Positions 1 through 63,635 of a DNA stretch of 64,000 bases are shown piece after piece. The stretch comes from a candidate division WOR-3 bacterium (GTDB lineage: Bacteria; Hydrothermota; Tepidihabitantia; Tepidihabitantales; JAOUPE01). Every line of letters begins with the position of its first letter. Positions within the stretch are counted from its first letter, which is position 1. Where the stretch lies: NCBI GenBank assembly GCA_039801565.1, contig JBDRUX010000001.1, positions 51,403 to 115,402 on the forward strand, read 5' to 3'. The notes beneath the pieces were generated by a model. It saw only the letters and a list, made by a program, of their open reading frames with translations. It ran no database searches and was not told the origin of the DNA. The translations under genes and the position numbers were made by a program.

Positions 1-19
1 TTCGAAATTCAAAATTCTT

Positions 20-970: not shown

Positions 971-980
971 ACTCTGAAAG

Positions 981-1886: not shown

Positions 1887-1973
1887 AAGAAAAAGGCGGT
1901 CAAAAGACCGCCTTCAGTTTTATTTTATTCATTAGAGTTTACATAAGGTAGCAGTCCGACAAGAAATAATGAG

Positions 1974-3803: not shown

Positions 3804-4080
3804 AGGTCCTCCGTTTCTAATAATAACTTAATAGTTCTGTTTATTCGAGGGACTATTCCTCTCCCTATCCTTTATCTTCCAAGAATGGGGAACAGCGAGG
3901 TGATTTGCCCCTCGTTCCGATTATAATCAAGAAAATTTATCGGGTCAAGCATTACTTTTCATTAAACTTAATTTATTTAAGGTGGCAATTTAATAATTTT
4001 AGCTACTGGCTGGATAGCCGAAGAGATAGATTATGAACGAAAAGGGTTGACAAAAGGCAAAGTCTTTATATCCTACTTGA

Positions 4081-6631: not shown

Positions 6632-6908
6632 GACTTTCCCAATGAAAAAAACGCCAGCAAATCCAGAAGACTTATTGGAGACAGGCCAATTTTACCTTTT
6701 GAACCAAAAGTTTTCCGAGGCGATAAAGAAATTTAAGGAAGCCTTGAAACTGAAGCCTGATGACCCGAAAATCTATTTCCAATTAGGACTGGCTTATGAA
6801 GGTGCCTGCCAAATCAATGAAGCGAAAGAGATGTTTCGAAAAGTATTAGAATTGGATGCCGGGGCAAAAGAAGCCGCCGAACACTTGGAACGCCTGGCAG
6901 GAAAATAA
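6618..6908 (+). CDS. small TPR-repeat protein
   Basis: TPR-like helices (AIKKFKEALKLKPDDPKIYFQLGLAYEGACQINEAKEMFRKVLELD). Overlaps the trkA stop. Confidence 0.45.
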   Translation: MNGCETFPMKKTPANPEDLLETGQFYLLNQKFSEAIKKFKEALKLKPDDPKIYFQLGLAYEGACQINEAKEMFRKVLELDAGAKEAAEHLERLAGK

Positions 6909-6911
6909 TTA

Positions 6912-7040
6912 GTGTATTGTCCAAGGTGTAAAACAAAAATGGTTGAACAGAAGCGAAGTTTTCATAAGAAACGAAAATGGGTATGTCCAAAATGTGGCAA
7001 GGTACGGATGCAGTTACCAAAATTAGCTAAAGAACAATGA
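6912..7040 (+). CDS. 42-aa zinc-ribbon small protein (CxxC...CxxC)
   Basis: Hand translation from GTG gives VYCPRCKTKMVEQKRSFHKKRKWVCPKCGKVRMQLPKLAKEQ. It is below the ORF-track size cutoff. Two CxxC pairs are present. Confidence 0.3.
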   Translation: MYCPRCKTKMVEQKRSFHKKRKWVCPKCGKVRMQLPKLAKEQ

Positions 7041-7177
7041 TGAAGAGCGAAAGTTTAACTTTTAAAGATAAACCAAAGAGACCAGACTTGATTGGGGTTT
7101 GGTTATTATCTTTAGTAATCTTTACCCTGAATCAAGTTCAGGGTAATCCGCCCCAGGTGGCGAAAAAGGAGGGAATT

Positions 7178-8593: not shown

Positions 8594-9130
8594 ATCCGGG
8601 ATATTGTCAAAAACTTTATGAAAGAGACCACAGAGAATCCGAATGGGATTAAGAAAGAAAAAGGGAACTCTGAAACAAGTTCAGAGTCGACTTCGTCGAA
8701 TCACAGAGATAAATTAAGTTCTTTGTGTTCGCCTCACGCAGTGAGATTCTTCTCAATATGCTTCTTCATCTTTTTCCTGTTTATTTGTGTTCATTCGTGG
8801 TTTTCCCCTTTTCGTTCGGTGGACGCTGCGTGTAGCTCGTAAGAGATTCGCTTTAAGGAACATAGTTCATCAAACGCGGATTGAAGGAAGGTCTAAAAAG
8901 ACTGAAATTCAAGGAACACAGAGGGGGAGCCCGATTTGGGTAAGTTCTTGAGCTTAAAAAGAATTCTCTGTGTTCTCTGTGGTTGATTTTGACAATACCA
9001 AATCTGATTTGAGGAAAAACCCCTCAACTCCCCATCTTTAAAAGAGATGGTTCAAAATTGTTTCCGCCTCAGGCGGATTCAATTTGGGGATTTAAAGGGA
9101 CAAAGCCCTTTGGTAGTTTTGCATCGCAAA

Positions 9131-9262
9131 GGTTAGTTAAAACTAACGTTTCCCAATGACCAGTTTTTCTTCTATCATATTGATTATCCAAGTAGTTAGT
9201 CGTAAGACAGCTTAGAGGGAGGGTATGGCGGGGTGGCAGTATCCGGGGCAGTGGCAGGGCTA
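9131..9262 (+). repeat. Copy E (short) of the dispersed repeat family: 16-bp palindrome GTTAGTTAAAACTAAC plus G-rich head TTAGAGGGAGGGTATGGC
   Basis: The palindrome (9131-9146) and head sequence are shared with copy A at 36753. The head matches copies B and D. Confidence 0.5.
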
Positions 9263-9477
9263 GCTTATAAAGCAACCCAATTAGTTGTTTTTGGTACATA
9301 TTCAGACTTTACCTTCGACTCTATCCGAATTACTACTTAGAGGAAAGTTTTCCGGCCTGGTTAGCGAATAGGTTCAAAGGCTGGCTGATAGGATAGAAGA
9401 CAAACAAAATAAGCAGTGAACTGGAAAATTAGATAGTCAATCGCCTGAGAAGATAATCTTCAGTCCCTTCCAGTGGA

Positions 9478-10884: not shown

Positions 10885-10886
10885 GA

Positions 10887-13391: not shown

Positions 13392-14340
13392 CTGCCTAAC
13401 CGACTTGACCCCAAAAACGGACTGGGGTGGGAAGGAAACTTCACCTTAGCACACAACGAGAGAGACCCGACCTCTCATATCTATTATTGCAAAATTTGTG
13501 CCAGAAGATTAAATTAAAGTTCGATTTTCTTTCTTATTGTAAAATAATAACTTAAATTAAGGGTCAATTAAACCACTCTTTTTAAAAGTCATTGATGTTG
13601 CATTTATGCAAATTTTGTTGTAAATAAGCAGCACAATTGATTTGGGTGTGGGTCATAATAGATTGCGGTTCTTGACCATTTAGTATGGAAGACACTTGAG
13701 GCATCGCTTCAATCCTTTGTCCACCATAAAGCCAATCTCTTCACTCAATCCTAAATATTACCTATACCGTCACCAATATTGGATCAAATAACAATCCTTT
13801 CTCAGTCTCAAAAAAACGAAACCATTCCAATTTCATAAACAATTATACACAATCGGCTCAATATTTTAACCATTTGGTTGGTAATATTCCGATAGCCACT
13901 ACAGTGGTTGCTTCTCGGAGTGCTATACGGGACTACCGAAGAAGCAAGGAGATTAGTGAATAGAAATTAACGAAGATGTTGCGATGTGATTTATCGCAAA
14001 ACAGCGGTTGTTCGGTAGCGTTGTTGGATTGGCCATTCGTGATGAGGTCAGTTGTGCCAGCATCTTTTGGTTTCTTTGTTTAAGATCGATTCTATCCGGC
14101 TCTTTTAAAAATTTCACTGAAGACGCACCACAAACTCTAAGGCACTTAAGAATTGTATTCAAAGATGAATTTTTTACCCTACCCTTTTCCTGAATTTAAA
14201 GACAAGCCAATACCTTTAGCCACCTCGGCTTGTGACAAATTTACCTTCTGACAGGTTTTAATTAAAAGCTTTACTATTGCTTGGGTTATAATTGTTTAAT
14301 TATTTTAAGGTTTTAAAAAGTATACTATTTAGTATATACC

Positions 14341-14556
14341 AAAAATCAAGCCGAAATTTCTTTTAACTAGTAGCCTCGTAGGTTGGTTCAGGGGTTAGCT
14401 GAGGACCAAGTTCGCAAGCGAGTTGGGAGGCAACTTGGGAAACGGGTTAGGGATTTGGTTAGGAAATTAGCTGGGGAGCTGGTTCGGAGGCGGCCCCGTG
14501 AGCTACCTCAGGGATTGGCTAGTAGGCAAGCTGGAAAGTAAAATCGTAGGCTGACT
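14341..14556 (+). repeat. Copy C of the dispersed 12-nt periodic repeat family
   Basis: Leader AAAAATCAAGCCGAAATTTCTTTTAAC (shared with copy A), then a degenerate 12-nt periodic array (agttgggaggca/acttgggaaacg/ggttagggattt/...) containing cgtagg words. Confidence 0.55.
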
Positions 14557-21616: not shown

Positions 21617-21919
21617 TCAAGTGCTAATAGTCGGTGGAACCGGTTTCGGTGGCTGAGGAATACCATCCGGTGGCACCGGCTTCGGTGGTTGCGGAATACC
21701 ATCAGCAAAAATCAGAGGAGGTACGGGTTTAGGAGGTTGGGGAATACCATCGGTGTAAAGCCCCGGTGGAACCGGTTTCGGTGGCTGAGGAATACCATCC
21801 GGTGGCACCGGCTTCGGTGGTTGCGGAATACCATCAGCAATCACTGCGAAGACAGTGATCAGGAGCACAATCCATAAAAGCGCGGTAGTATGTCGCACAG
21901 AGCCTCCTTTCTTGGGCAT
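21617..21919 (-). CDS. small membrane-anchored protein with five tandem DGIPQPPKPVPP repeats
   Basis: N-terminal TM (ALLWIVLLITVFAVIA). A 36-nt tandem coding repeat, present 5 times. Confidence 0.55.
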   Translation of the reverse strand: MPKKGGSVRHTTALLWIVLLITVFAVIADGIPQPPKPVPPDGIPQPPKPVPPGLYTDGIPQPPKPVPPLIFADGIPQPPKPVPPDGIPQPPKPVPPTIST

Positions 21920-22085: not shown

Positions 22086-25000
22086 TTAAGAACTCTGGAA
22101 GTCTTCTTTATTGATATTATAACGTCGGAGCAATCGTTGAATTTGTCGCCGATGGGTGGAGAGCATTTGAGCAGCACGACTCACATTGCCTTGGGTGGCT
22201 TTGAGTGCTTCAATTACTTGTTCCCTCTCCAAACTTTTCTTTTGACCTTTCTCAATTTTCATCGTCTTTGCAAAATTAACAATTTTCGGACCGAGATTTT
22301 CTAAACTGATTTTTCGCTTTTGCGCCATTATCACTGCTCGTTCGATTACATTTTGCAGTTCTCGGACATTACCTGGCCAGGGATATTCGGTAAGAATTTG
22401 GGGAATGTTATCTTCAAAACCCAGAATCGGCTTATTGAGTTGTTTCGCATACCGTTTTAAAAAATATCCGGCTAATAGCATAATATCGCTTTTCCGCTCT
22501 CTTAACGGTGGCACCTGAATTGTTACAACATTCAAGCGATAATAAAGGTCTTCGCGAAACCGATTAGCTTTAACTTCTTCTTCAAGATTTTTGTTAGTGG
22601 CACAAATCAGTCGCACATCTACTCTTCTCGGTTCAGTTTCTCCCACCCGTCGAATAATCTTGTCCTCCAAGACCTCTAAAAGTTTTGCTTGGATACTTAA
22701 TGAGGTATTGGCAATCTCATCCATAAAAATTGTACCATGTTCAGCAATTTCGAATAAGCCTTCTTTGTCCCGAATCGCTCCGGTAAAAGCACCTTTGCAA
22801 TGCCCAAATAGTTCGGATTCAAATAGTGTTTCAGGCAATGTGCCGCAGTTGATTGAAACAAATTTGTTGGCACGTCGGTTACTATTGGCATGAATTAATC
22901 GAGCTAATACCCCTTTACCTGAACCAGTCTCACCTAATAATAGCACAGTACAATCAGTTGGAGCTATCTGTTCGATTATCGAATAGACATCCTTTATCGC
23001 TTTAGAACGTCCTAAAAAATAGCCAGTTACCGCATCGGTCAAAATATCCTCCCGCAGCGCGGAAAAATCCTCTTGCATCTTCTTGAAAGCAAAAGAGCGG
23101 TCAATAGTGGCAGCAAGAAGATTGGCTACCGAGATGAGTAAATTTTTGTCTTCTTCGACAAACACATTGGGATTGATTCGGGAATCAAGATAAATTGTCC
23201 CGATAACTTTATCATCAATCCGCAATGGTACACAGACTAAAGAACGAATTTTATTTAATACCACACTATTAGAATTAACAAACCTTGGGTCCGATAAAGC
23301 ATCAGCGCAAATTATCGGTTCCGCACGTTTTTTAACCTGACGAATCACAGTTCGCGAAATTGTATGTGCATCTTCTAAAGTGGTGTGGTCAACATTACGC
23401 GCCGCCACCGGGAATAACTTATCCCCTTGAATTAAGAAAAGAAGACCGCGCTCGGCCTGGGTTACATCAATGATTAAATCTAATAACCGGTCAGCAAAAT
23501 CCTCTTTCTCTAAGTCAAGATTAATTAATTCACTTAATTCATAGAAGACTTTTAAATATTCGCCACGCTCCCGCCCTTTTAATTTATGGGTTGCTTCAAG
23601 TTGACTAATATGATTTAACATATATCTCACCCTTTCTTGTTCAACTTTCGCTCCTAAACTTGTAAAAATTGTCTCAGCCTCTTTTAAATCATCCAATACC
23701 CGGGTAAGTTCCTGTTCCGATAATGGCTTGTAAGTAATTGGTAGGGGCTCGCCTTGGTTATAAGTTTTAGGTGCAGTAAGAAGTAACAGGCTTGCCTGGG
23801 CTTGGTAATAAAGCGATTTTGCCATTTCATATTTTGCACCTAAGCTCCGAAGAATCTCAATACTTCGATTCAATTCTTCTTTCCCATCATCCGTAAAACC
23901 AAGGGCATGTTTAGCTAATCCTCGCCACCGTAATAAAAGGGAGTATAGTCTCGGATTAGCATTATATGCTTGACCTTCTGCTGCTGGTAAAGTTAATAAA
24001 TTCTGAGCTCGTTCACAGGTGGTTAAACACTTAGACCAATCGGCTTCAGCCGCCCGTATCCCAGCTGCAGTTAAAAGCATTTCAATCAATTTCTGTTTAT
24101 TTCCTTTCGCATAAATTCTTTGCACATTAAGGGCAAGGGCAAGAGATTTAATTGCTGAATCTACTTGATCGCGCATCAAGTGTAATTTCGCCCAAGCTAA
24201 GTAAATTTGACCCAAAATTTGTTGATTTTTGTTCTGTTTGGTCAAATTTTCTGCTTCTTTAAGCAAAGGTTCAGCATCAATGAAGTCGCCTTTTTTCGTA
24301 AATAGATTAGCCAGATTAATTAGTCCGATGACCAACCCATTATCGTCCCTAATATTTTGCCGAATTTCGATATCCTTTTGGTAATAAGCGGTTGCTTTTT
24401 GCCAGTCCCCCATCTCTTCTAAGATAATACCTAGGTTACACAATGTATCACCCAATCCGGCTGAATCACCAATTTTTTCGCAGAGTTCTTTTGCTTCTTT
24501 AAAATATTCTAAGGCTTGATGCCAATCGCCAGTTTCAAAATCAACCAAACCAAGACCCTGAATGGTACGAATCCGAAAGTAAACATCGCTCAATTCCCAA
24601 AGTGGTGAGGATAGGATGGAAGAATAAGTTTCTTTTGCCTTATTTAATTCCCCTTTCTGCCAGTAGATTGTCGCTAAGAACTGACCAATTTTTCCCCGGA
24701 GATTGGACTTGGAAGAAATCCAGTTTGATTCTACTTCTTCTCGCGCAGGGGCTGGTTTCTCATATAATGCAAGACCACGATTCGCATATTCTAAGGCCAA
24801 ATCAATCTCCCCTTTATACCAGGCAAGGGCACTCATTCCATAAAGAGTTCGTGCCTTTAGGTCAACCAACGATTCGGAATTTTTTAAATCAATCGTTTTT
24901 AAGGCTAAAGAATAAAACTCCTCGGCTTTCTTAAAATCACCTTTAGCGGTTAACGACCAGCCGATGTCATTCCAAAGGGTTATTGTTCCAACTGCGTCTT

Positions 25001-27428
25001 TTTCTTTAAGGGTGGTGAGTGCTTGTTTGAAATAACTGATTGATTCATCTACTTTACCTTGTTTCTGATAGATTAGTCCTAATCGGCGCAAAACACTGGC
25101 TAATAGCGAAACATAGTTGGGTTCTCTTCTTAAGGTATTGTCGGAAAAGAGAATACCCAGTCCTTGAGTATAAATGTCAATGGCATCGGCAAAGCGTCCC
25201 GTGATTTCCCGCAAGCGCCCAACAGCTTCAATTAACTCAATCCGTTCTCGGGCTGATACAAAGTTGGATGATAAGGCAAGCGCAGTTTCATAAAAACCAA
25301 GTGCCAATTCTGTCAGATTTAATCTTTTTGCTTTGGCTCCTGCCTCACGACAATAGTTAAAAGCTCGATCTTTTATCCCAGCCTGGGTGTAGTGGTGAGC
25401 TAAATCAAAAAGGTAACGATCTTGTTCCCGCGGGTAAAGCAATTCGATTGCCAGGGCAACTGAGCGATGATAATCCCGTCTTTCTTGCACACTAATTCCT
25501 TCGGTAATAATCGCTTCTAAGGTCTTGGAGGATAAGACAAAACCATCCGAATCGGGTAGGGGGCGCAGTAAATTAATCGCCCGTAACCTTGAAAAAATTG
25601 AATAGAGGAGATGTTCCTCATAACCTAAAACCGCACGAACAAAATCAACTGTGAAAGGAGTTCCAGTAATCGCTCCCACCTTTAAAACTTCTAATTCTTC
25701 TCGAGTGAGAGTACTCAGTCGTTCTTTAATCAGCGAGTAGACAGTGTCTGGTAATTTGAAATCGCCTGATGTCAATCGGTTACGGTCTAATCTCCAACGA
25801 CCGTATTCCAATTGAATGACCTTGCTGGCCAAAAGGGAATAAAGCGATTCAATCACAAATAGTGGATTACCGCCGGTACTGGCAAAAAGCCAGGTGCTCA
25901 ACTCGGCGCTTGATGGATGAGGACCAAGAATTGCTTCCACTAAAAGTTGAGTCTCCTCTTGAGTTAGTGGACCAAGCGTAATGTGTTGAAAAAATTCTTT
26001 TCCCAAAAATTCTTTACTGAGTTCTAAAATTCTCCGCTCATTCAAACTGCTCACCACCACAAAAATTTTCTCCTTCTCAATGCTAAATCCTAAGAATCGG
26101 AGAAATTCGAGACTCATTGAATCAAATAATTCAAAATTATCAATCAGCAATAAAAGGCTGTGTTCAACCTTTGATGAATTAGCTAACGCTTTGAGCTTTT
26201 TTATTATTTCTTCAAATAATTCATATTTTGTTGCCTCGTCTTCCTGCTTTGCTACAATGTTTTTGATATCTTTACCATCATAAATTGATAAATTAGCTAA
26301 AATGTCTTCAATTAAAGATGGGGGGCGAGCACCTAATGCAGTATGAGCCGATTGTAAAATTGAAACACCTTCTAATTTAGCGAGAAATTTAAATTCTTGT
26401 AAAAGCCTACTTTTACCCACGCCGCGTTCCCCGGTGATAAAAACTAATTGTCCATTTGAACCTTTGGCTGATTCTAACCGGTTTCTAAGAACGTTTAACT
26501 CATTTTCTCGGCCAATAAAACTCGAAGCTTGAAGAGAAAAAACACCTTCTCCGCTTCGCCGAATGCCAATAGTCGGTATTTTTTCCTTTAAAGATTCTGG
26601 TATTATATCACTTATCGTCTCGATAACTTCTAAGGCAGAAATTGGACGCCGAAAAGCATCCCGTGCGAGTAAACGCATACAAAGGTTAGAAAACTTCTCG
26701 GGGATTTTGCTATCAATCTCACTTGGTGGCGCGAAGTTGGAATAATATTGAGTCCGTAGCCAATTCCGTAAATCTGTTTCGGTTGACGGTCCCCGACCGG
26801 TTAGGATTTCATAAATTACCATACCTAATGAGTATAGGTCAGCCCGACCATCCGCTTCGGTTCCCTTAAAAATTTCTGGTGCAATGTAACCAAGTGTTCC
26901 GCGTGGTATCTGATTGGAAGAAGAGAAATAATTAGCAAACCCAAAATCTAATAATTTGGCTCTTGCCTTGTTACCGGTGTCAGAGTCGATCGCCGTATTG
27001 ACCAGGATATTCTGAGGTTTCAAATCACAATGAATTAATCCCTGGCTGTGAATAGTATCTAAGGCATACAATATCTCAATCAACACTAATAATAAATCTT
27101 CGGAATATCCTTTAAAAAATTTGTTAATCGGCGCACCTGGAAAATATTCCATTGTAAAGAATGGCTTTCTTTCAGTTATCCCAAAATCGAAAGGTGCGAC
27201 AATATTCGGATGATTAAAGCGACTGAGCATGAAAAATTCTTGATTTAATTGATTCTCAATTTCTTTTGTCGCAGGTTCTCGGGAGATTTTTAGGGCTACG
27301 ATGCGGGCACCAACCAAATCCTTTGTTTTGTAAACCTCAGTTATTTCACCACCACCCAGATAATCTAAAACCTGATAACGGCCGGCAATTAAACTGCCGG
27401 TTTTAAAAGCACCCTCTTTTTGATTCAT
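22086..27428 (-). CDS. Giant multidomain regulator: Ser/Thr protein kinase + STAND/AAA ATPase + TPR array + GAF + sigma-54 activator (AAA+) + Fis-type HTH
   Basis: Kinase motifs HCDLKPQN, DFG and APE. A P-loop GERGVGKS follows the kinase. About 600 aa of TPR-like repeats. A GAF-like region. An EBP core with GETGSGKGVLARLIH and intact GAFTGA. A C-terminal HTH (NVSRAAQMLS). Confidence 0.8.
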   Translation of the reverse strand: MNQKEGAFKTGSLIAGRYQVLDYLGGGEITEVYKTKDLVGARIVALKISREPATKEIENQLNQEFFMLSRFNHPNIVAPFDFGITERKPFFTMEYFPGAPINKFFKGYSEDLLLVLIEILYALDTIHSQGLIHCDLKPQNILVNTAIDSDTGNKARAKLLDFGFANYFSSSNQIPRGTLGYIAPEIFKGTEADGRADLYSLGMVIYEILTGRGPSTETDLRNWLRTQYYSNFAPPSEIDSKIPEKFSNLCMRLLARDAFRRPISALEVIETISDIIPESLKEKIPTIGIRRSGEGVFSLQASSFIGRENELNVLRNRLESAKGSNGQLVFITGERGVGKSRLLQEFKFLAKLEGVSILQSAHTALGARPPSLIEDILANLSIYDGKDIKNIVAKQEDEATKYELFEEIIKKLKALANSSKVEHSLLLLIDNFELFDSMSLEFLRFLGFSIEKEKIFVVVSSLNERRILELSKEFLGKEFFQHITLGPLTQEETQLLVEAILGPHPSSAELSTWLFASTGGNPLFVIESLYSLLASKVIQLEYGRWRLDRNRLTSGDFKLPDTVYSLIKERLSTLTREELEVLKVGAITGTPFTVDFVRAVLGYEEHLLYSIFSRLRAINLLRPLPDSDGFVLSSKTLEAIITEGISVQERRDYHRSVALAIELLYPREQDRYLFDLAHHYTQAGIKDRAFNYCREAGAKAKRLNLTELALGFYETALALSSNFVSARERIELIEAVGRLREITGRFADAIDIYTQGLGILFSDNTLRREPNYVSLLASVLRRLGLIYQKQGKVDESISYFKQALTTLKEKDAVGTITLWNDIGWSLTAKGDFKKAEEFYSLALKTIDLKNSESLVDLKARTLYGMSALAWYKGEIDLALEYANRGLALYEKPAPAREEVESNWISSKSNLRGKIGQFLATIYWQKGELNKAKETYSSILSSPLWELSDVYFRIRTIQGLGLVDFETGDWHQALEYFKEAKELCEKIGDSAGLGDTLCNLGIILEEMGDWQKATAYYQKDIEIRQNIRDDNGLVIGLINLANLFTKKGDFIDAEPLLKEAENLTKQNKNQQILGQIYLAWAKLHLMRDQVDSAIKSLALALNVQRIYAKGNKQKLIEMLLTAAGIRAAEADWSKCLTTCERAQNLLTLPAAEGQAYNANPRLYSLLLRWRGLAKHALGFTDDGKEELNRSIEILRSLGAKYEMAKSLYYQAQASLLLLTAPKTYNQGEPLPITYKPLSEQELTRVLDDLKEAETIFTSLGAKVEQERVRYMLNHISQLEATHKLKGRERGEYLKVFYELSELINLDLEKEDFADRLLDLIIDVTQAERGLLFLIQGDKLFPVAARNVDHTTLEDAHTISRTVIRQVKKRAEPIICADALSDPRFVNSNSVVLNKIRSLVCVPLRIDDKVIGTIYLDSRINPNVFVEEDKNLLISVANLLAATIDRSFAFKKMQEDFSALREDILTDAVTGYFLGRSKAIKDVYSIIEQIAPTDCTVLLLGETGSGKGVLARLIHANSNRRANKFVSINCGTLPETLFESELFGHCKGAFTGAIRDKEGLFEIAEHGTIFMDEIANTSLSIQAKLLEVLEDKIIRRVGETEPRRVDVRLICATNKNLEEEVKANRFREDLYYRLNVVTIQVPPLRERKSDIMLLAGYFLKRYAKQLNKPILGFEDNIPQILTEYPWPGNVRELQNVIERAVIMAQKRKISLENLGPKIVNFAKTMKIEKGQKKSLEREQVIEALKATQGNVSRAAQMLSTHRRQIQRLLRRYNINKEDFQSS

Positions 27429-36629: not shown

Positions 36630-36752
36630 TTACAAACTTAGGTGACCAAACTCCGAAGTCGGCTTTAAGGCTATCTGATTGGCTATTAAAGTCAATTTGG
36701 CTTGCGTTAAGTTTCTTCGCCATTGCTTCAGTAACAATCAACATCACAAAAG

Positions 36753-37050
36753 GTTAGTTAAAACTAACACCAAAATCGAGCCGAATTTCTTTTAACCTTT
36801 TGATATTTAAATATCTTATATTTAAGATTGCTTTGGGAGGGGGTATGGCCTCGGGGCAACCCCGTAGGCTACCCCCTAAGTCTTCCTATAGGTTGCTTGG
36901 GGAGTTACTTCGGCAGCTGATTGGCAGGTAGGTTCGGGAGCGACTTCGCAGGCAACTCCCGAAGCGGGTTAGAGAACAATCTGGCAAGCACCCTCGGGAG
37001 TTGGTTTGGGGGCTACCCCCGTAGGCTACATAGGAGTCTGCTCGTAGGCC
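36753..37050 (+). repeat. Copy A (full length) of the dispersed repeat family: palindrome, leader, promoter-like AT stretch, G-rich head, then 12-nt periodic array
   Basis: GTTAGTTAAAACTAAC (36753-36768). CAAAATCGAGCCGAATTTCTTTTAAC. TTGATA-N17-TAAGAT. TTTGGGAGGGGGTATGGC. About 200 nt with 12-nt periodicity, co-linear with copy B (ccccgtaggctaccccctaag, ggttcgggagcgacttcg). Confidence 0.6.
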
Positions 37051-37363
37051 AGCAATAGAATCTTTTAGAATTCATCAATCCTGGTTTTTAATGGCTCCTG
37101 ACGGATGACTAATATTATCAGAGAAAAATGAAGTTTTAACATTTAGGTAGCGGGTATTATCGGGGAAGATATTAGAGAATGCGAAGCGACTCTTCAGGTG
37201 CAGAGTTTAAATTTTATGCGTTAGCAGATAGTATTTAGGAGTGGATTTGGTCCGCCTTTGAGAGAAAAGAAAAAAGCGAAACATCCGCTGACAATTTTCA
37301 TTTATGAGAGAGATTCCTAAAATTTACCCTTGACGAGTTGTTTTTTCTAATTAATATTATAAA

Positions 37364-38578
37364 GTGAAGAATGCAATCGCTTTCATCTTAGCCGGTGGTC
37401 AGGGCGAACGGCTCTATCCTCTAACCAAAGACCGGGCAAAACCAGCGGTACCATTTGGGGGCATTTATCGAATCATTGACTTCACCCTGTCGAATTGCGT
37501 TAATTCGAATCTGAAACGAATTTATGTTCTAACCCAATACAAATCATTCGCTCTTGACCGTCACATCAGTCTTGGCTGGAATATCTTCAATCCGGAGCTT
37601 GGTGAGTTTTTACATTGTTTGCCACCGCAGTTCCGAATGAAAGATGATTGGTATTTAGGAACCGCTGATTCAGTTTATCAAAATCTCTATTCCCTCAAAT
37701 CGGCTAATCCCGAATATGTCTTTGTTCTTTCTGGTGACCACATCTATAAGATGGATTATCGCAAGATGTTAAAATTTCATCGGACTAAAGAGGCTTCGGT
37801 AACGATTGGATTGTATGAAGTGCCGATTGAACAGGCTTCACGGTTTGGGGTCTTAGAGGTTGACTCCGAACTGCGCATCGTTGGTTTTGAGGAAAAACCC
37901 CAAAAACCAAAGCCTAATCCTAATGACCCATCCAAGGCACTGATTTCGATGGGTGTTTATCTTTTCAATACCGAGGCATTGGTCGCAGCACTGATGGTTG
38001 ATGCTGAAGACCCCAACTCTTCCCATGATTTTGGTCGAGATGTCTTACCAAAGATGTTTGAAGGTTATAAGGTTTATGGTTATCCGTTTGAGGATGAAAA
38101 CCGCGGACCAATAAAATACTGGCGGGATGTCGGTACGATTGATGATTATTATCTGGCAAATATGGATTTAGTGGAGGTTGCACCAATCTTTAACCTTTAT
38201 GATAAGCGCTGGCCAATTCGAACTTACCAACCGCAATTGCCACCGGCCAAAACTGTATTCTTTGACTATCGGTCGGGTCGAGTCGGCGAAATTTTGCAAT
38301 CAATTATTGCTCCAGGAGCGATAATCAGCGGCGGTAAGGTTTGTCGTTCAATTATATCGCATCAAGTGCATATTCATTCTTATACCGATATTGCCGATTC
38401 AATCCTTTTGGAAGGGGTTGAGGTCGGTCGTTATGCTAAGATTCGGCGCGCCATCATTGATAAATGGGTGAAGATTCCGGAAAGAATGGAAATTGGTTAT
38501 AATCTCGACGAAGACCGAAAACGATTCTTTGTCACTGATTCGGGAATTGTGGTCATTCCTAAAGATACTAAATTTTAA
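37364..38578 (+). CDS. glgC: glucose-1-phosphate adenylyltransferase
   Basis: N-terminal AFILAGGQGERLYPLT, KPAVPFGG and a LbH C-terminus. GTG start. Confidence 0.9.
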   Translation: MKNAIAFILAGGQGERLYPLTKDRAKPAVPFGGIYRIIDFTLSNCVNSNLKRIYVLTQYKSFALDRHISLGWNIFNPELGEFLHCLPPQFRMKDDWYLGTADSVYQNLYSLKSANPEYVFVLSGDHIYKMDYRKMLKFHRTKEASVTIGLYEVPIEQASRFGVLEVDSELRIVGFEEKPQKPKPNPNDPSKALISMGVYLFNTEALVAALMVDAEDPNSSHDFGRDVLPKMFEGYKVYGYPFEDENRGPIKYWRDVGTIDDYYLANMDLVEVAPIFNLYDKRWPIRTYQPQLPPAKTVFFDYRSGRVGEILQSIIAPGAIISGGKVCRSIISHQVHIHSYTDIADSILLEGVEVGRYAKIRRAIIDKWVKIPERMEIGYNLDEDRKRFFVTDSGIVVIPKDTKF

Positions 38579-38634
38579 CCTAATGCCTTCACAAGAATCC
38601 AAGATTAAAAATCAAAACGCTAAGGAGAAATAAA

Positions 38635-40218
38635 TTGCCCGGAGCGGGAATCGAACCTTACCTTTCAGCATTATTAAAACCTGATACCTACGGCGAAAAT
38701 GTTAAAGCGGTTCGATTAATTCAAACTCATACTTCCTGGGTCTTTCTTACTGGTGATTTTGCCTATAAGATTAAAAAACCGGTCTTTTTTGGTTTTCTTG
38801 ATTACACAACCTTAGAAGCAAGAAAATTTTTCTGTGAAGAGGAGTATCGGTTGAACCGACGGCTTTCGCCCGAGATCTATTTAGCGGTGCTGCCCGTAGC
38901 TAAAAAAAGTGACGGGAAAATAGTTTTAAGTGAAGATGGTGAGATTATTGACTATGCGGTTAAAATGAGAGAGTTACCCCAAGACCGATTGATGACCGAA
39001 CTTCTAAAGCAAGACAATATCCCCTACTCAACAATTGATGAAATTGCCAAGATTGTTGCTAACTTTCATCAGACCGCTGAGACCGGTCATCGGATTAATC
39101 AATTCGGCAGTATCGAGACGATTAAGTTTAACTGGGATGAGAACTTTGCCCAAACTGAAGAATTTATCAATCGAACCATTAGTCGCCGGACATTTCACTT
39201 GATTAAACGGGCAGTATACAAATTTATGTGGGATAACCAAGACCGATTCGCGCAGCGAATTGAGACGGGTAAAATTCGTCAGTGTCATGGCGACCTCCAT
39301 TCCAAAAACATATTTTTGACCGACAAGGTTTATATCTTTGACGCCATTGAGTTCAATCAAAGATTCGCCTGTTGCGACACTGCTTCCGAGGTAGCTTTTT
39401 TTGTGATGGATTTAGATTATTACGATAAACATCATCTGGCTAATTTTTTTATTGACCGCTATCTACAATATACCAAAGATTATGATTTATTGGCGTTATT
39501 AGATTTTTATAAATGTTATCGGGCTTATGTGCGGGGCAAGGTGACAAGTTTTAACCTTAAGGATAAAGGGATTAGCGCTGATGATAAATTAGTTGCTCAG
39601 AAGACGGCTCAAAAATATTTTCGGTTGGCAGCAAATTATGCCCAAAATCTATTCAGTTCACCAAAGTTAATTGTGATGATTGGACTGCCCGGGGTTGGCA
39701 AGACCCATTTTGCTCAAACCTTGGCTCCGAAAATAAATGCTTACCATTTGCGAACCGATATTATCCGTAAGGAGTTAAGCAATTTACCGCTTGACCAACA
39801 TCACTATACTGGTTATGGCAAAGGAATTTACACCGGTGACATCTCAGCCCGAACTTATGATGAGATGTTTAGTCGGGCACGCCGCTATCTTTCTTACGGC
39901 AAGTCCTGTATATTGGACGCCACATTTTCGATGGAGGCATCTCGCCAAGCTGCGCAAAAAATTGGACAAGAATTTAATGCTAACTTTCTAATGATTGAAT
40001 GTTATTGCCCCAAAAAAATGGTCTTAAAACGGATGCGTAAGCGGGAGCGTAGTTTCGATTTCTCGGATGCCAATCCCGAAGTATATGAAGCAATGCGCAA
40101 ACATTTTGATCCAGTGGCAAGGACTAAAAATGTTATTAAGGTTAATACGGCAAAACCATTAAAACCATATATCAAAAAGATTGTTGCGAAGTTGCGGGAG
40201 GACAAAAGAAATCGGTAA
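38635..40218 (+). CDS. bifunctional phosphotransferase-family (APH/choline-kinase-like) protein fused to a P-loop kinase (AAA_33-like)
   Basis: Brenner-like HGDLHSKN and DxxE motifs in the N-terminal half. Walker A GLPGVGKTH in the C-terminal half. Confidence 0.55.
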   Translation: MPGAGIEPYLSALLKPDTYGENVKAVRLIQTHTSWVFLTGDFAYKIKKPVFFGFLDYTTLEARKFFCEEEYRLNRRLSPEIYLAVLPVAKKSDGKIVLSEDGEIIDYAVKMRELPQDRLMTELLKQDNIPYSTIDEIAKIVANFHQTAETGHRINQFGSIETIKFNWDENFAQTEEFINRTISRRTFHLIKRAVYKFMWDNQDRFAQRIETGKIRQCHGDLHSKNIFLTDKVYIFDAIEFNQRFACCDTASEVAFFVMDLDYYDKHHLANFFIDRYLQYTKDYDLLALLDFYKCYRAYVRGKVTSFNLKDKGISADDKLVAQKTAQKYFRLAANYAQNLFSSPKLIVMIGLPGVGKTHFAQTLAPKINAYHLRTDIIRKELSNLPLDQHHYTGYGKGIYTGDISARTYDEMFSRARRYLSYGKSCILDATFSMEASRQAAQKIGQEFNANFLMIECYCPKKMVLKRMRKRERSFDFSDANPEVYEAMRKHFDPVARTKNVIKVNTAKPLKPYIKKIVAKLREDKRNR

Positions 40219-43986: not shown

Positions 43987-44190
43987 CCAAATTTTCTTCT
44001 TTCAGATTTTTCGATTCGAGTTGAACCCCTCTCCACTAATTACCCAATAGCAATGGGCTTTTTCCCAAAAGAAGTTTGGGTCGTTTTGTTTCTGAAATTT
44101 TGCTAATTCTTTTATTTAAGAAATAGGGTTCATTCGTTAATAATCATTTAACCTATTGATTTTTCATATCTAATGTTCTCTTGACATATC

Positions 44191-44430
44191 ATAGGGGGCT
44201 AGCCCTGGGCTACCTTATGGCTATCTCGTAGGTAGTATAGGGAGCGGTATTCGGGGTAGGTCTCGGGCTTGTCTCATGGGTAGTCTAGATATTTGGCACA
44301 GGGAAAGTGTCGAAGGCGAGTTTGGCGGTTGATTCGGAAGGTGGTTGAGAAGTGGGTTTGTCTCTAGGCAGGTATATTGGCGGGAGGACCGGCTTGGAAG
44401 GTAGCGGATAGGTTGACTCGTAATCGGAAA
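44191..44430 (+). repeat. Copy D (diverged) of the dispersed 12-nt periodic repeat family
   Basis: Head ATAGGGGGCTAGCCCTGGGCTACC, then tcgtaggtagtatagggagcgg and a G-rich array with 12-nt periodicity. Lies between the convergent CapA-like gene and dnaA. Confidence 0.45.
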
Positions 44431-50466: not shown

Positions 50467-50711
50467 TAAAATGAATGCACAATTAACGACCGCAAGCAAT
50501 AAATTTTCCTTGACAAAGTCCTAAACCGAGTTATGATTTTATGTAATTCTAATGGTTGCGAAGCAATGGACTTGGGGTTTGGCAGCGATTTTACCGAAGG
50601 CGATAAAATTTTAGGAATTGCTCTTTTCCTTTATTTTTGTGAACAGACTGATTCGCCACAAACCTAATGGCGAATCGGTTAAAACTTGAAAACAAAAAGA
50701 AGGAGGAACAA

Positions 50712-53700
50712 ATGGATTTCAGCAGTAATAAACAAAAGAGGTTAGGCAAGAAGACCTGCTTTTCGATTTTTACCTATATGCTAATCCTATTAGCACTCGT
50801 AAGCACCGGACTCCAAGCTGGTTCAATTACCGAAAAGTTCAATTTTGCAAAAAGTGAAATAGGATTCAAGAAGATTGGCGAATTCGATTTGCCGGTAATA
50901 CGGGATTGGCTTTATACCGCGGAGGTTGGTAAGCCAATGATTCCTTATCTAATTTTTCAGGTTTTAGTTCCACCAACGGCAGAAGTTACTGAGGTAAAGG
51001 TCTTGTCATTTAAGAAAGTTGAAGTTGAAGGCAAATATTATATTCATCCCAGTCAACCACCAGTGCCAATTTCTTACAAAGGCGAGATTCCTTTTGTGCC
51101 ACCTGATGAAGCAACTTATAATTCAACTGAAGAGTATCCAGCCCGGTTGGTTGATTTTGTGCCGACTGGTTCAAAAAGTGGCTACCGGATTGCTGGGGTT
51201 GAGGTTTATCCTTTACATTATGTGCCTAAGGAACGGAGGCTTTTCTTATACACCGAACTGGTCTTAGAAATTATTTATGAAGAAGGTAAGGTTGCACCGC
51301 AACTTTTAACCGAATCCCAGAAGAGACTTTTTGGTCAAGAAGTGCGAAGTTTAATAATCAACAAAAAGGATTTAAAACGTTTTGAACCACCGACGAAACT
51401 GATTGACCAAGGTAACGAGATTGATTACTTGATTATAACCAGTAGCACCTTGGAATCGAATTTCCAGCCCTTAGCCGAATGGAAGACTAAAAAAGGCTGG
51501 AACACCAAAATTCGAAATACTAACTGGATAAATACTAATTATTCCGGCCGGGACTTACAAGAAAAAATCCGAAATTACATTCGAACCTGTTTCGCCGATT
51601 CAGGTTTGAAGTTTGTGCTTCTGGCAGGTGATAATTCGATAATCCCAAAACGAGGAACATATGCCTGGGTTTCACCTCATATTGACAGTTTCATACCTTG
51701 CGATTTGTATTTTGCTGATTTAGATTGGAGTTGGGATGGTAACCAAAACAATGTTTTTGGCGATACTTGGACAATAGGCGGTAGGCGAGACACGGTTGAC
51801 CTTTATTATGATGTTTACATCGGAAGGGCATCAGTAGAAACAGCGAGCGAAATTTCCAATTTCTTGAATAAATTATTTACCTATGAGAAGAATCCAAATA
51901 CTGATTACATCAAAAGAATCCTTTTACCTTGGGGGGTACTATGGTCAGGTTATGATAGCAAACAATCGCAAGATTCGATAGCGAAATATACACCGGCTGG
52001 TTGGACTGACCGCTATATCAATGATACAAGAGTGGTTAATGAAGTTAGGGATTCGTTAAATAATGGTTTTCAATTCTGCCATTTGGTTGGGCATGGCAAT
52101 GATGTTGGGGTTTATTGGACAAGCACCGGACCAGCAATGTATCATACCGGCCATCCCGGAACACAGACCAATGTTAATAAGTATCTTATTGCTAATTCGA
52201 TTGCTTGCTATCCAGGTAATTTTGAATACTCGGATTGTCTTGCTGAATCTATGGTGAATGTCCAGAATTGTGCGGTGGCGGTGATTATGAATTCAAGATA
52301 TGGTTGGGGAACGCCGCCTAACATTGGTCCTTCAGAACTTCTTGATTTTCAATTTTATTATTTCTTTTTTAATTATGATACCTTCCGAATCGGTATCACC
52401 CATGCCGAATCGAAAGAATTTTATCGGAACTCAGCTCTTAACCAACAGGTTTGGCGTTGGTGTTATTACGAGTTAAATCTCTTTGGTTGTCCGGAGATGC
52501 CGATGTGGCAGGATGTTCCTTTGACAATGACTCTTGCCTTTGACGATACAATAAACACTGGTAGCCAAACTTTTACTGTAACCGTCACTGACCCGAGTGA
52601 TGCGCCGGTTGTGAATGCTTTAGTTTGTCTTTGGAAAGGAAATGAAGTTTATGTGCGGGGGTATACTAATGCCAGCGGTATCGTTAACTTTACAATAAAT
52701 CCTACCACTGTTGGTCAAATGTTTGTTACCGTCTCGGCTTTTAATCATTACCCGAAAGAGGATACTTGTTACATTATTGAGCAGAACGAGGATGTCGGCG
52801 TTACGACTATTATTACACCAACCGGCAATATTGACTCGAGTGCGGTCTCCTCAATTATACCTCAAGCAACAATTCATAACTATAGCATTTCCGATACGCT
52901 AAGTTTCCCAGTAATTTTCTATATCTATGACAGTGGCTGGAATTTAGTATGGGCGGATACTCAGCAGATATTAGACCTTGGTCCTAACCGCGATACGACA
53001 ATAAATTTTGCTGCTTTAGGCATTGAATTGTCACGTGGCATTTATAACACTAAATGCACAACCGCCCTGGTTGGTGATATTAACCCATCCAATGACTGGC
53101 AGGATAGTTCATTTACGGTTATTGTCCACGATGCTGGGATGATTGATATTGTGACGCCAACCGGACTTATTAAGAAAAATAGTGTTATCACACCTCAAGT
53201 AACAGTGCGGAATTTTGGCAGTGTTAGAGATTCTTTTGATGTGATATTAACGATTGGAGCGACTTATGTTGATACCGTCTTCACAACCCTTGACCCTAAC
53301 AACCAAACAACACTTAGTTTTAATCCTTGGACCGCAACTGCAATTGGGACATTTCAAGTTCGCTGCACCACCGCTTTAATTGGCGATTTAGTCACAGTCA
53401 ATGATACTTTATCGGATTCGGTAATAGTCTACGATGATGATGTCGGTGTGGTGGCAATTTTGGAGCCAGTTGGTCCGACCGATTCGACTGCGACGATTGT
53501 GCCCCGCTGTAGTGTTTACAATTATGGTTCATCACCAGCTACTTTTTCGGTTACTTTTAGAATCTTAGAAGCGGGTTATAGCAATACGCAAACCGTTACC
53601 GCATTAGCCCCCAATACCGGCACAGCGATTCCTTTTGCGCCCTGGTTGGTCGGGCCAAGGGGCAATTATACGACAAGATGTTCAACCGGAATGAGTCCCG

Positions 53701-63214: not shown

Positions 63215-63333
63215 GAAGACCAGCAGAAAAGAATCTGTAAAATAGTCAAAAACTTGAAATATATTTCAACCTAAAAATGACCGATTTTTTCGTCTATCGT
63301 GTTGGTCTTCCGTCGGTTACACCAATTTTCCCT

Positions 63334-63635
63334 TAGGGAGGGGGTACCGTATAGGGGGTGACCCCGTAGGCTACCCCCTAAGCTATCCCGTAGGTTGCTT
63401 GGGGAGTTGCCTCGGGAGTTCCTTCTGGAGCTGGTTGGTAGGCAGGTTCGGGAGCGACTTCGTAAGCAACTTCCGAAGCAGGTTAGGAGGCTACTTGGGG
63501 AGCAACCAGGGGAGCTACCCCGTAGGCTGCCCAGTAGGCTACCTCGTAAGCAAGCCGGTAGGCTGGCATCTTTCCCAATTTCGAAATTCGAAATTCTTTA
63601 AGAAAACCCCGTAGGCTACCTCGTGGGCTGGGGTT
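63334..63635 (+). repeat. Copy B (full length) of the dispersed repeat family: G-rich head plus ~15 units of a 12-nt periodic array
   Basis: Head TTAGGGAGGGGGTACCG. The ccccgtaggctaccccctaag word is shared with copy A. Units ggttgcttgggg / agttgcctcggg / agttccttctgg / agctggttggta / ggcaggttcggg ... with consensus rGCnrsyTnGGr. The ORF-track ORFs at 63395 and 63399 are translations of this array. Confidence 0.6.

Follow-up and report, generated by a model that had tools for sequence, protein, structure and literature searches.

The intergenic element at positions 36752-37053 of the window (the whole 64,000-nt stretch of WOR-3 DNA analyzed here) is best explained as the best-preserved window copy of a lineage-specific, two-part WOR-3 module. 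It comprises a palindrome, a leader, a predicted promoter, a G-rich head, and a 12-nt periodic array, which is co-linear with the arrays of the copy at 63.3k and of copy F outside the window and is followed by a T run at 37063-37066 (Table 1). The adjoining stretch on the opposite strand, which shares 64% nucleotide identity with the sequence preceding copy F, is probably the remnant of an HTH gene; this assignment is weak alone and leans on the layout of the module elsewhere.

An earlier note on this DNA had described five mutually homologous loci, all intergenic and all on the + strand, and a profile search bore this out. The nhmmer profile was built from the 36.7k, 63.3k, and 14.3k copies together with the copy on L001, and it recovered the two left-out copies at 9123-9236 (E=4e-8) and 44144-44347 (E=4.6e-6). 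Apart from reverse-strand self-matches of the arrays, the window contained no further profile matches, and there were none in 1.09 Mb of non-WOR-3 DNA. The word CCCGTAGGCTAC, with up to two mismatches, occurred nine times against 1.65 expected, with eight of the nine occurrences on the + strand within the elements. Independent contigs excluded collapsed repeats in the assembly as the source of the periodicity, since an NCBI MAG contig was 99.99% identical across window positions 1-10970 and a Logan contig was 100% identical across 36851-39534. The sixth copy suspected just upstream of the window is not there, because positions 1-19 sit inside a DUF2229 coding gene; the real sixth copy, copy F, lies at L001 4119-4470, about 5.5 kb upstream of the window. 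The note was silent on the XRE gene remnants, the divergent promoter, and the WOR-3-wide spread of the module.

The copies are unequally preserved. Co-linearity was confirmed for the 36.7k and 63.3k copies, which are separated by a single 12-nt deletion and are the only complete ones within the window. A head followed by a 150-250 nt array, which had been ascribed to all five loci, is accordingly present in these two and not in the 9.1k, 14.3k, and 44.2k copies. The diverged copies had also been said to carry indels that break any reading frame; the 14.3k array keeps strict phase throughout its 15 units and therefore has no indels that shift the phase. Its decayed HTH gene reached Pfam HTH_3 at E=0.013, short of the cut-off, its product shares 42% amino acid identity with the remnant beside copy F, and a 97% identical strain contig (L081) retains a 74-aa ORF (P0001) at this gene. 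The few recognizable units of the 44.2k copy, at 44219, 44327, and 44411, share one 12-nt phase. In the 63.3k copy an AT-rich insert separates the array from two extra units (63603-63635), and neither a conserved promoter-like block nor an HTH remnant is visible. HTH remnants adjoin three copies in this genome, and an IS3-type remnant adjoins copy F. With the regulator genes decayed or lost and several copies shortened, the family is here mostly made up of relics; promoter, head, and array are retained in the 36.7k copy and copy F, and head and array in the 63.3k copy. A polarity tied to replication was considered and rejected, since dnaA lies within the window, yet the copies on either side of it are co-oriented.

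Table 1. Features of the element family in the window, with module loci found elsewhere (E-values as remarks).
Feature	Position	Strand	Remark
XRE-family HTH gene, 5′-end remnant (MAKKLNASQIDFNSQSDSLK...), probable	36630..36723	-	rest of gene missing
Palindrome GGTTAGTTAAAACTAAC	36752..36768		exact second copy at 9131-9147
Conserved leader CAAAATCGAGCCGAATTTCTTTTAAC	36771..36796	-	kept in all loci
Sigma-70-like promoter TTGATA-17-TAAGAT, directed into head	36800..36828	+	predicted
G-rich head GGGAGGGGGTATGG..GGGGCAACCCCGTAGGCTACCCCCTAAG, nested hairpin	36835..36880	+	best-conserved block
12-nt periodic array, 13 units, consensus RGYNRSYTNGGR	36880..37053	+	tiling, autocorrelation
Shortened copy: palindrome, leader, promoter-like block, degenerate head; lacks array	9123..9262	+	nhmmer E=4e-8
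XRE HTH gene of 14.3k copy, decayed (frameshift and stops)	13953..14339	-	translations
Palindrome GTATACTATTTAGTATATAC of 14.3k copy	14320-14339		within the 13953..14339 feature
Leader and 15-unit array of 14.3k copy, strict phase	14340..14556	+	promoter and head deleted
Heavily decayed copy, ~500 nt past dnaA stop codon	44144..44430	+	nhmmer E=4.6e-6
Full copy	63247..63635	+	head 63337-63382, array 63383-63568
Module locus L080			E=5e-40
Module locus L082			E=9e-70
Module locus L089			E=4e-53
Module locus L092			E=5e-43
Module locus L093			E=3e-59
Module locus L096			E=6e-64

Linkage to an opposite-strand XRE-family HTH gene

The element is one half of a module of about 0.6-0.7 kb, the other half being an XRE-family HTH gene on the opposite strand. 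When the reconstructed products of the HTH pseudogenes were used as queries, intact XRE proteins were retrieved, for which Pfam HTH_3/HTH_31 is recorded and all named matches of which belonged to WOR-3. In every independent locus with enough upstream DNA, the leader, head, and array lie divergently upstream of the HTH gene. The block homologous between modules extends from the end of the array to inside the HTH gene and measures 560-655 bp; no transposase was found within it.

The palindrome at this position differs from one paralogue and species to the next (GTATACTATTTAGTATATAC, GTATATTATTAATATAC, ATGCCTAATAGGCAT, GTGACTAATAATCAC, GTGCCTAATAGGCAC), and it is likely the operator of the linked HTH protein. 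The proposal that the array itself is a series of operator sites was not upheld, the putative operator being a separate palindrome beside it. The reverse complement of the leader contains the -35-like hexamer of the HTH gene promoter, which reads TTGATT in intact loci and CTCGAT in the 36.7k copy, and HTH promoters (TTGATT-16-TATACT and TTGATT-17-CATAAT) are predicted just upstream of the intact genes of L082 and L089. On the + strand, the -35/-10 hexamers recur in copy F, L082/L093/L096, L089, and L092, and roughly in the 9.1k copy, with a distance from the first hexamer to the G run fixed at 34-35 nt across species. The promoters of window genes are similar (TTGACA/TATAAT) to the predicted head promoter; the block is not conserved in the 63.3k copy, nor clearly in L080. 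A run of four to six T lies within ~10 nt of the array end in seven of ten loci, and L092 has a terminator-like match. The conserved promoter and the T run thus suggest transcription pointing away from the HTH gene.

In the DNA sampled, the element is so far known only from WOR-3. The head word CCCCGTAGGCTRCCYCCTRAG, searched as an exact pattern in 185k species genomes, had no match, and a relaxed head pattern gave four matches in JGI metagenomes, all of them chance hits in GC-rich coding DNA without the 12-nt period. Two viral scans yielded chance matches only, and blastn against plasmids and phages yielded none. In the two nearest WOR-3 species (contigs L007 and L008, with GlgC identities of 83% and 75%), the intergenic stretch preceding glgC lacked the element. 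Six metagenome variants of one locus differed at two variable sites only, too few to be informative. The family looks like an undescribed regulator-plus-RNA module.

The 12-nt array and the G-rich head

Autocorrelation confirmed the proposed 12-nt period well above background, with a window mean of 0.277 (sd 0.05) for identity at lag 12 compared with 0.39 in the 44.2k copy and 0.43-0.58 in those at 14.3k, 36.8k, and 63.3k. The arrays consist of 12-16 phased units, each with a purine run (GGGAG, GGAGG, GGGGG, or GTAGG), and adjacent units resemble one another. Only two one-base phase slips were found among 114 units in eight arrays, five unit positions vary by transitions only, and single units are conserved and co-linear across species, with indels in 12-nt steps. 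The rarity of phase slips, the transition-only positions, and the conservation of single units were counted as constraint favoring an RNA.

The + strand folds of seven of nine arrays had z-scores of -2.6 to -6.0. A specific long array hairpin initially appeared convincing, with 92% of cells paired, seven compensatory pairs, and none of 500 shuffles reaching the observed value. It failed a unit-permutation control, in which the native order folded no better than permuted ones (z ~0 on both strands, in seven of eight arrays); the hairpin is thus a property of the units and not a selected structure. A mutual-information scan detected no base-pair-type covariation in the array, and the excess of G.U over A.C (100 vs 48) is that predicted from base composition alone.

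The head is 80-84% identical among the three full copies, and that of the 36.7k copy has a folding energy of -30.3 kcal/mol (z=-4.7). All nine loci compared are compatible with one shared hairpin, with 93% of cells paired, and the variation is mostly from G-C or U-A to G.U on one side. Seven of the 13 head pairs vary by G.U wobble only, which gives 93% pairing on the + strand vs ~77% on the other. Covariation in the head across the nine loci was not significant.

Readings of the module

Our preferred reading, to which we assign a probability of roughly 0.45, is that the module specifies a divergently transcribed, regulator-linked non-coding RNA of ~230-270 nt serving as a periodic binding platform. 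A small XRE-family HTH regulator gene would possess its own promoter and a paralogue-specific palindromic operator, and the RNA would be transcribed divergently from the sigma-70-like promoter, starting at the G-rich hairpin head. Its body would be the 12-16 strictly phased units of RGYNRSYTNGGR, usually ending at the T run, so that on the + strand the RNA may extend from about the G of TTTGGGAGG to that run. The regulator would control the adjacent RNA, as in divergent regulator-sRNA pairs, and the RNA would act as a periodic multivalent platform whose partner reads one motif per 12 nt. The analysis establishes the family, the layout of the module, its confinement to WOR-3 in the DNA sampled, its non-coding character, and the strict phase; we infer the transcribed strand, the HTH regulation, and the RNA function. 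The model leaves the period of 12 unexplained. The arrays also outlive dead regulators, so the regulatory link may be dispensable, and at most loci a gene reads into the C-rich strand, which is better explained by Rho loading. A more speculative proposal, which we consider unlikely, is that the strict phase is itself functional. The arrays would then be a natural multivalent lattice, maintained by evolution, on which an RNA-binding machine of ring or helical shape takes one motif per 12 nt. The concrete candidate partner is the Rho hexamer on the C-rich strand, which would make the cassettes portable "super-rut" terminator-insulators joined to a regulator gene; the other is an oligomeric protein on a G-rich RNA scaffold.

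According to the main rival, Rho loading, for which the odds are long, it is the C-rich strand that functions, and RNA read in the direction of the HTH gene would form a strong Rho-loading (rut) site. The cytosines every 12 nt would match the spacing of the six Rho subunits, the head hairpin would be the downstream pause site, and array and head together would halt transcripts running on from the gene upstream and insulate the regulator. This is the sole hypothesis that predicts a period of about 12, and it would account for the survival of arrays after regulator decay. The operational definition of a rut site asks for C/G>1 and a cytosine every 11-13 nt within 78 nt, and for a pause site beyond (PMC6407284, RhoTermPredict). 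On the C-rich strand C/G is 1.4-2.4 for whole arrays and reaches 1.9-4.4 in the best 78-nt window, C occupies fixed unit positions over 12-16 units, and every unit has two to four YC dinucleotides, kept in strict phase for 144-192 nt. The G content of this strand is still 16-25%, and the formal definition is lenient. The head follows directly after the array on this strand (-29.5 kcal/mol in the 36.7k copy) and may serve for pausing, and the C-rich RNA is predicted to have far less structure than its G-rich counterpart. A gene reading into the C-rich strand ends 4-490 nt before the array in four of six copies (the five in the window and copy F), and likewise at L082, L092, L093, and L096/L097; the expected orientation in eight of ~10 loci is marginal (p ~0.05). 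However, rut function needs merely C-richness and spaced YC, which leaves 10/12 constrained unit positions unexplained, together with the transition-only positions and the unit-by-unit conservation between species. This explanation gives no role to the -35/-10 block and its constant spacing from the head, or to the T run behind the array. We know of no natural rut site that is a strict tandem array.

It is also improbable, in our judgment, that the array acts as double-stranded DNA or has no function at all. In one variant it would be a periodic binding lattice for a DNA-binding protein; in the other, the ~0.6-0.7 kb cassette would be selfish or duplicative, slippage and gene conversion would hold the phase, and the window copies would be neutral relics. 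Several observations fit such an element: the copies are dispersed, variously shortened, and missing from the same site in the nearest species (L007, L008), short-read contigs end at the element in several metagenomes, neighboring units are alike, HTH genes decay repeatedly, and the IS3-type remnant lies beside copy F. Paralogous arrays are ~91% identical despite differing operators and HTH genes, which suggests gene conversion. Against a selfish cassette, no transposase or integrase was noted, and mapping of the block boundaries, short of a systematic search of the ends, showed neither terminal inverted repeats nor target duplications. Single units keep their identity from species to species and one-base indels are nearly absent, although units diverge from each other by ~40-45%; such a pattern is hard to obtain in the absence of selection. 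Since 12 bp does not match the helical repeat of DNA, a simple protein lattice along one face of the duplex appears unlikely, and the only linked candidate binder is the HTH protein, whose likely site is the palindrome.

The element had further been likened to a protein-sequestering sRNA of the CsrB/RsmZ type. GGA does occur in about half of the units, at 5-9 per copy with a spacing of 12-36 nt and a density like that of CsrB, and the copies are paralogous, as would be expected of this type. The likeness did not hold as stated, because there was no Rfam match and the predicted folds put the GGA motifs in base pairs. Rfam 15 at the gathering threshold returned tRNA-Lys only for the window, and both full window copies lacked a match to Csr/Rsm or any other Rfam family at E<=10. 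The folding check put GGA in hairpin loops in none of the three full copies, since 0/8, 0/5, and 0/7 motifs were unpaired in the minimum-energy folds and the mean predicted unpaired probability at GGA was 0.11-0.30. A tblastn search with E. coli and B. subtilis CsrA found no csrA in 177 kb of WOR-3 DNA, a sample too small to speak for the whole genome. The unit motif UNGGR + RGY differs from ANGGA, the consensus of CsrA-type binding, and CsrB-type RNAs are not known to be linked to XRE genes. We regard a CsrA/RsmA-sequestering sRNA as very improbable; the looser idea of a multivalent binding RNA survives.

The element is non-coding, and the earlier statement that no protein-coding feature explains this multicopy element stands. 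Six-frame translations of 11 copies revealed no frame that is open with a start in all loci having an intact regulator. Period-3 substitution bias was absent (variable sites per codon position 31/62, 31/62, and 28/61), and no frame showed a consistent synonymous excess among L082, L093, and L096. Five concatenated frames of the 63.3k copy had no match (E<=0.01) among 5.8 billion protein clusters, and the sixth frame contains 11 stops. The combination of GGGAGGGGG and ATG in the 36.7k copy was rejected as a ribosome-binding site and start, because elsewhere the triplet is ATC or ACC, followed by TAG within 2-4 codons; an SD-like motif of any sort precedes only 5 of 30 window genes. A small protein built from repeats of four residues (+ strand, G-S-x-L/F; opposite strand, P/A-E/Q-P-A-Y-like), with the window copies as pseudogenes, could draw on the strict absence of frame-breaking indels from the arrays, on the + strand "GS" frame being open over head and array in 63.3k, L080, L082, L092, L093, and L096, on the opposite-strand frame being open for 105 codons (a called 105-aa ORF) in L087/L089 and 63 codons in L096, and on a GS-frame unit entropy lower at the second than the first and third codon positions (0.93, 1.15, 1.23). 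This reading is already largely refuted and has hardly any likelihood left, since the start is not conserved, homologues and synonymous excess are missing, substitutions are even over codon positions, the transition-only positions are spread over all three codon phases, and few stops are expected by chance on a G-rich, A/T-poor strand. Moreover, in L080, where the regulator is intact and the array is the most regular of all, the array is devoid of ATG, GTG, and TTG, and each unit of the opposite-strand frame has a TAA, while the GS frame of L089 has two stops and the opposite frame of L092 has three.

WOR-3 is an uncultured phylum essentially without described regulatory RNAs, and the module is a concrete case of a small repressor coupled to a non-coding element and duplicated time and again. 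No curated RNA family resembles the strictly phased 12-nt architecture of this element. If the RNA is made from the G-rich strand, it would be a structurally new type among the regulator-linked and protein-titrating sRNAs. If instead the C-rich strand is active, it would be the first natural tandem-array Rho-loading site and a simple model for how Rho reads spaced cytosines. Should the lattice proposal be true, with either candidate partner, the element would represent a kind of periodic RNA element so far undescribed in bacteria. In practical terms, short-read assemblies of WOR-3 genomes break at the element and gene callers place spurious ORFs there.

Relation to known systems

CsrB, RsmX, RsmY, and RsmZ resemble the element in carrying many short purine-rich motifs on one RNA, in having paralogues, and in the idea of multivalent titration. 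They differ in that the array motifs stand in strict 12-nt phase, are predicted to be paired, and follow another motif. The rut sites share with the opposite strand an excess of C over G and cytosines every 12 nt over more than 78 nt, followed by a hairpin; natural rut sites, however, are degenerate and not conserved tandem arrays, whereas the WOR-3 unit positions are mostly constrained beyond the needs of Rho.

The comparison with REP-like repeats was correct as far as a dispersed repeat is concerned and failed for the repeated unit, which is a cassette of about 0.6-0.7 kb with a regulator gene and not a short palindrome. Like REP/BIME and MITE sequences, the copies are dispersed, intergenic, and self-complementary, and they interrupt short-read assemblies; unlike these, the WOR-3 block contains a gene and two predicted promoters. 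In ToxI of type III TA systems, a promoter is likewise followed by a tandem array of short RNA repeats with a terminator at its end. The ToxI repeat is ~36 nt vs the period of 12 in WOR-3, where no toxin gene lies downstream of the array and no conserved gene at all was found there across the loci compared. The ToxI Rfam model matched at 16.4 bits vs a gathering threshold of 50, on the other strand and outside the array, which is a sub-threshold chance match.

Divergent regulator-sRNA pairs are represented by oxyR/oxyS, gcvA/gcvB, and sgrR/sgrS. As in the WOR-3 module, the regulator and sRNA genes stand back to back with divergent promoters and a regulator site between them. Their regulators, however, belong to LysR or other families and are single-copy and syntenic, while the WOR-3 module is multicopy and unstable, and their sRNAs act by Hfq-dependent base-pairing and lack tandem periodicity.

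In Bartonella, each Brt RNA has a trp gene of the XRE family as its partner; the pairs are multicopy and clustered, and some of the trp genes are pseudogenes (PMC5387305). Brt lies upstream of trp on the same strand, whereas the conserved WOR-3 promoter is directed away from the HTH gene, and a Brt-like same-strand order with a terminator- or riboswitch-like 3′ end was not found, as the HTH-gene strand shows no T run after the head hairpin. Brt lacks a 12-nt periodic body and belongs to an unrelated phylum, so that no sequence similarity is expected; its transcription has been demonstrated, whereas the WOR-3 element is known from sequence alone. Both are lineage-specific multicopy families (the Brt RNA being ~200 nt) in which each copy stands beside a small XRE-type HTH gene, an arrangement found in WOR-3 at all six independent loci with an intact or split HTH gene, and both show genomic clustering, copy numbers that differ by species, and some regulator pseudogenes.

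Homology and modular anatomy of the copies

The repeat described in the earlier note was real, and it had more structure than had been noticed. The 36.7k (the element under study), 63.3k, 14.3k and upstream L001 copies were used to build a DNA profile, which recovered both window copies left out of it, 9.1k (9123-9236, E = 4e-8) and 44.2k (44144-44347, E = 5e-6), which confirmed the homology of the five loci first reported. No further copies were found by this profile in the window except reverse-strand self-matches of the arrays, and 1.09 Mb of non-WOR-3 DNA gave 0 matches. The word CCCGTAGGCTAC occurred 9 times versus 1.65 expected, and lag-12 identity in the copies was 0.39-0.58, compared with 0.277 (sd 0.05) on average in the window, whose G+C content is about 40%. 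Since positions 36851-39534 were 100% identical to a Logan contig from an independent run, the array is not the assembly artefact once considered. An NCBI MAG contig (GCA_965649045.1) matched window 1-10970 at 99.99% identity, and the window's GlgC shared 83% and 75% identity with its counterparts in two candidate division WOR-3 MAGs, all others being at or below 60%.

Copy alignment divided the element into five modules (see table). HTH pseudogenes with frameshifts, whose products are 42% identical to each other, adjoin the 14.3k copy and copy F, and beside the 36.7k copy the HTH gene is reduced to its first codons; all linked HTH genes in this genome are decayed or lost. Across three full copies, the head was the best-conserved block (80-84% identity), while the array reached 56-72%. 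The earlier view that every copy carries a head and an array did not extend to the three damaged ones, as 9.1k has no array, 14.3k has neither promoter nor head, and 44.2k is nearly erased. The promoter block was lost from 63.3k, and promoter, head and array are retained in the 36.7k copy and copy F. The latter is the suspected sixth copy, which lies 5.5 kb upstream and not at the window start, a position within a DUF2229 gene. All six copies have the same orientation although dnaA sits among them; therefore, their orientation is not simply tied to replication direction. A clustering of DnaA boxes of the E. coli type was not observed. Elsewhere, the L093 module lies about 4.5 kb from dnaA and the L082 module about 3.6 kb from gyrA.

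Modules of the element and other features of the window and compared contigs (window positions unless a contig is named)
Feature	Position (strand)	Description
(a) HTH gene remnants	opposite strand	small HTH gene; copy alignment
(b) Palindrome		sequence varies from copy to copy; copy alignment
(c) Conserved leader		AAAATCAAGCC..TTTCTTTTAA; copy alignment
(d) Sigma-70-like promoter	36800-28	TTGATA-17-TAAGAT
(e) G-rich head, then 12-nt array		head GGGAGGGGGTA...GGGG-loop-CCCC...; modules (a)-(e) in + strand order
Leader, promoter-like block, head and array at independent loci	L080, L082, L089, L092, L093/L094, L096-L098	divergent from HTH gene
Copy F	L001 4119-4470	sixth copy, same genome
IS3-type transposase OrfA-like frame remnant	L001 4622-4830 (+)	just past copy F, KAKLEIVLEGYRSGQ..IAAICQHRGIPKNF; surrounding DNA a graveyard of decayed mobile DNA
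ORF calls on arrays, opposite strand	L087 130-447; L089 540-857; L096 1105-1296; 44221-44649 (-)	most likely spurious
dnaA	44923-46383 (-)	Bac_DnaA, DnaA_N and DnaA_C domains
AT-rich stretch upstream of dnaA	46384-48163	1.8 kb, G+C about 0.35, no long ORFs; candidate replication origin
Second dispersed intergenic repeat	9010-9125; L001 8790-8900	unrelated to 12-nt family; (G)GGGAAA(T)CCCTCAA(A)CTCCC..TCTT(T)AAAG, then hairpin GGGG(A/T)TT(T/C)AAAGGG(G/A)CAAAGCCC(C)TTTGG
77-nt direct repeat	21632-21840	100% identical, 132 nt apart; in 36/48-nt tandem repeats of small ORF 21617-21919 (-)
Giant ORF	50667-59168 (+)	2833 aa; internal repeats at about 636-nt spacing; neighbouring genes with type IX secretion C-terminal sorting domains
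Giant ORF	22086-27428 (-)	1780 aa; neighbouring genes as in preceding row

Relatives in other WOR-3 DNA

Scanning genomes, metagenomes and viral contigs for exact patterns returned nothing real; relatives were reached using the reconstructed HTH pseudogene products as queries. These matched P0001, from a strain variant in which the 14.3k locus is less decayed, and P0002, an intact 132-aa XRE protein, which as a query retrieved 34 XRE proteins, every named one from WOR-3. At every independent locus with enough upstream DNA, the leader, promoter-like block, head and array were found divergent from the HTH gene; contigs L079, L083-L085, L095 and L099 begin 17-90 nt upstream of that gene. The block common to the modules runs from the distal array end to within the HTH gene (560-655 bp) between unrelated flanks, and in the two nearest species the region upstream of glgC lacks the element. 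Five further contigs, each almost identical to L089, came from other samples. At least three or four modules, two of them with split or truncated HTH genes, share the same metagenomes and probably belong to one population. In several metagenomes, the ends of short-read contigs fall within the element, and contig L075 starts inside it at window position 36851; the element thus seems to occur in several copies in those populations and to interrupt assemblies.

The palindrome differs from one paralogue to the next within otherwise conserved surroundings. Its L082 and L089 versions overlap a promoter -10, with the conserved leader supplying the -35; from this arrangement we infer a putative autoregulatory operator. 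Taken together, the cassette is specific to WOR-3 and pairs an XRE regulator gene with a non-coding element, in which a G-rich hairpin is followed by a 12-nt array in strict phase.

Structure of the 12-nt array

Eight independent arrays were tiled into 114 units with just two one-base phase slips, giving the consensus R G Y N R S Y T N G G R. Positions 2, 8 and 10 are nearly fixed, and positions 1, 3, 5, 7 and 12 vary by transitions only. Array indels come in 12-nt steps, the phase-breaking indels reported earlier are not present in the 14.3k array, and single units can be recognised and matched in order between the window copies and L082-type arrays. Most units have a purine run over their borders (GGGAG, GGAGG, GGGGG or GTAGG). 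Position 1 tends to alternate between A and G in adjacent units at all loci (e.g., L092 5672-5870), and adjacent units correlate at positions 4, 6 and 9, pointing to a 24-nt higher-order repeat.

Because the unit class pattern is self-complementary, any two units could pair antiparallel, which accounts for the long G.U-rich hairpins predicted in the + strand RNA. Permuted unit orders folded equally well, no covariation of base-pair type was seen in the array, and the excess of G.U over A.C was that predicted from composition. Consequently, no specific selected array hairpin is claimed.

Strand, function and known systems

On the + strand, the cassette would be a divergent regulator-plus-RNA pair, with the RNA starting at the head and running through the array. 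Our tentative reading, with a probability of about 0.45, is a putative divergent ncRNA, linked to the regulator, that would serve as a periodic platform for binding. A + strand RNA is supported by -35 and -10 hexamers whose distance to the G run is constant between species (34-35 nt), by the use of sigma-70-like promoters of this type in the organism, and by a T run that, in 7 of 10 loci, lies no more than about 10 nt from where the array ends. The predicted head hairpin fitted each of the nine loci examined, with 93% of cells paired, and its covariation across them was not significant; its variation consists mostly of one-sided changes to G.U wobble, a pattern that likewise favours the + strand.

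A Rho-loading array on the opposite, C-rich strand, the direction of the HTH gene, is unlikely, though it is the only model that predicts the number 12. RNA of that strand has a C/G ratio of 1.4-2.4 and a cytosine spacing of 12 nt, which is how Rho-loading sites are operationally defined in the literature, and the hairpin comes after the array; a gene reads into it in four of the six copies of this genome and in all four informative external loci. The Rho model accounts for neither the T run nor the promoter block, nor for most constraints on the unit. A DNA-level or selfish element is given the same low standing. The CsrB/RsmZ-type RNA proposed in the earlier note failed the membership tests on covariance models and on predicted loop exposure of GGA motifs, and a CsrA sponge is very improbable. 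An SD mimic was also unattractive because an SD-like motif was found in just 5 of 30 genes (long window ORFs, with starts from a mechanical ORF list); translation initiation in this WOR-3 organism seems to proceed largely without SD pairing.

A protein-coding array is as improbable as a CsrA sponge, and membership in protein-coding genes was rejected. Among the loci whose regulator is intact, no frame was open and provided with a start codon throughout. The most regular array, L080, has no ATG, GTG or TTG and carries TAA in each unit of the opposite-strand frame, and the + strand 'GS' frame of L089 has two stops. In the 36.7k copy, the ATG that follows GGGAGGGGG was rejected as a start, being ATC or ACC elsewhere, with TAG following within 2-4 codons. 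Substitutions among window copies were spread evenly over codon positions, no frame had a consistent synonymous excess in the L082, L093 and L096 arrays (about 91% identical), and five translated frames had 0 matches among 5.8 billion protein clusters. Gene callers and ORF lists place opposite-strand ORFs of 63-142 aa with P/E/A/Y-rich low-complexity products on the arrays.

Membership in CsrB/Rsm, ToxI or any curated RNA family was rejected, and the 12-nt lattice has a real chance of being something new. The element is best filed as a kind of regulator-paired multicopy ncRNA; among published systems, the closest parallel to an RNA family with many copies linked to XRE genes is Bartonella Brt/Trp.
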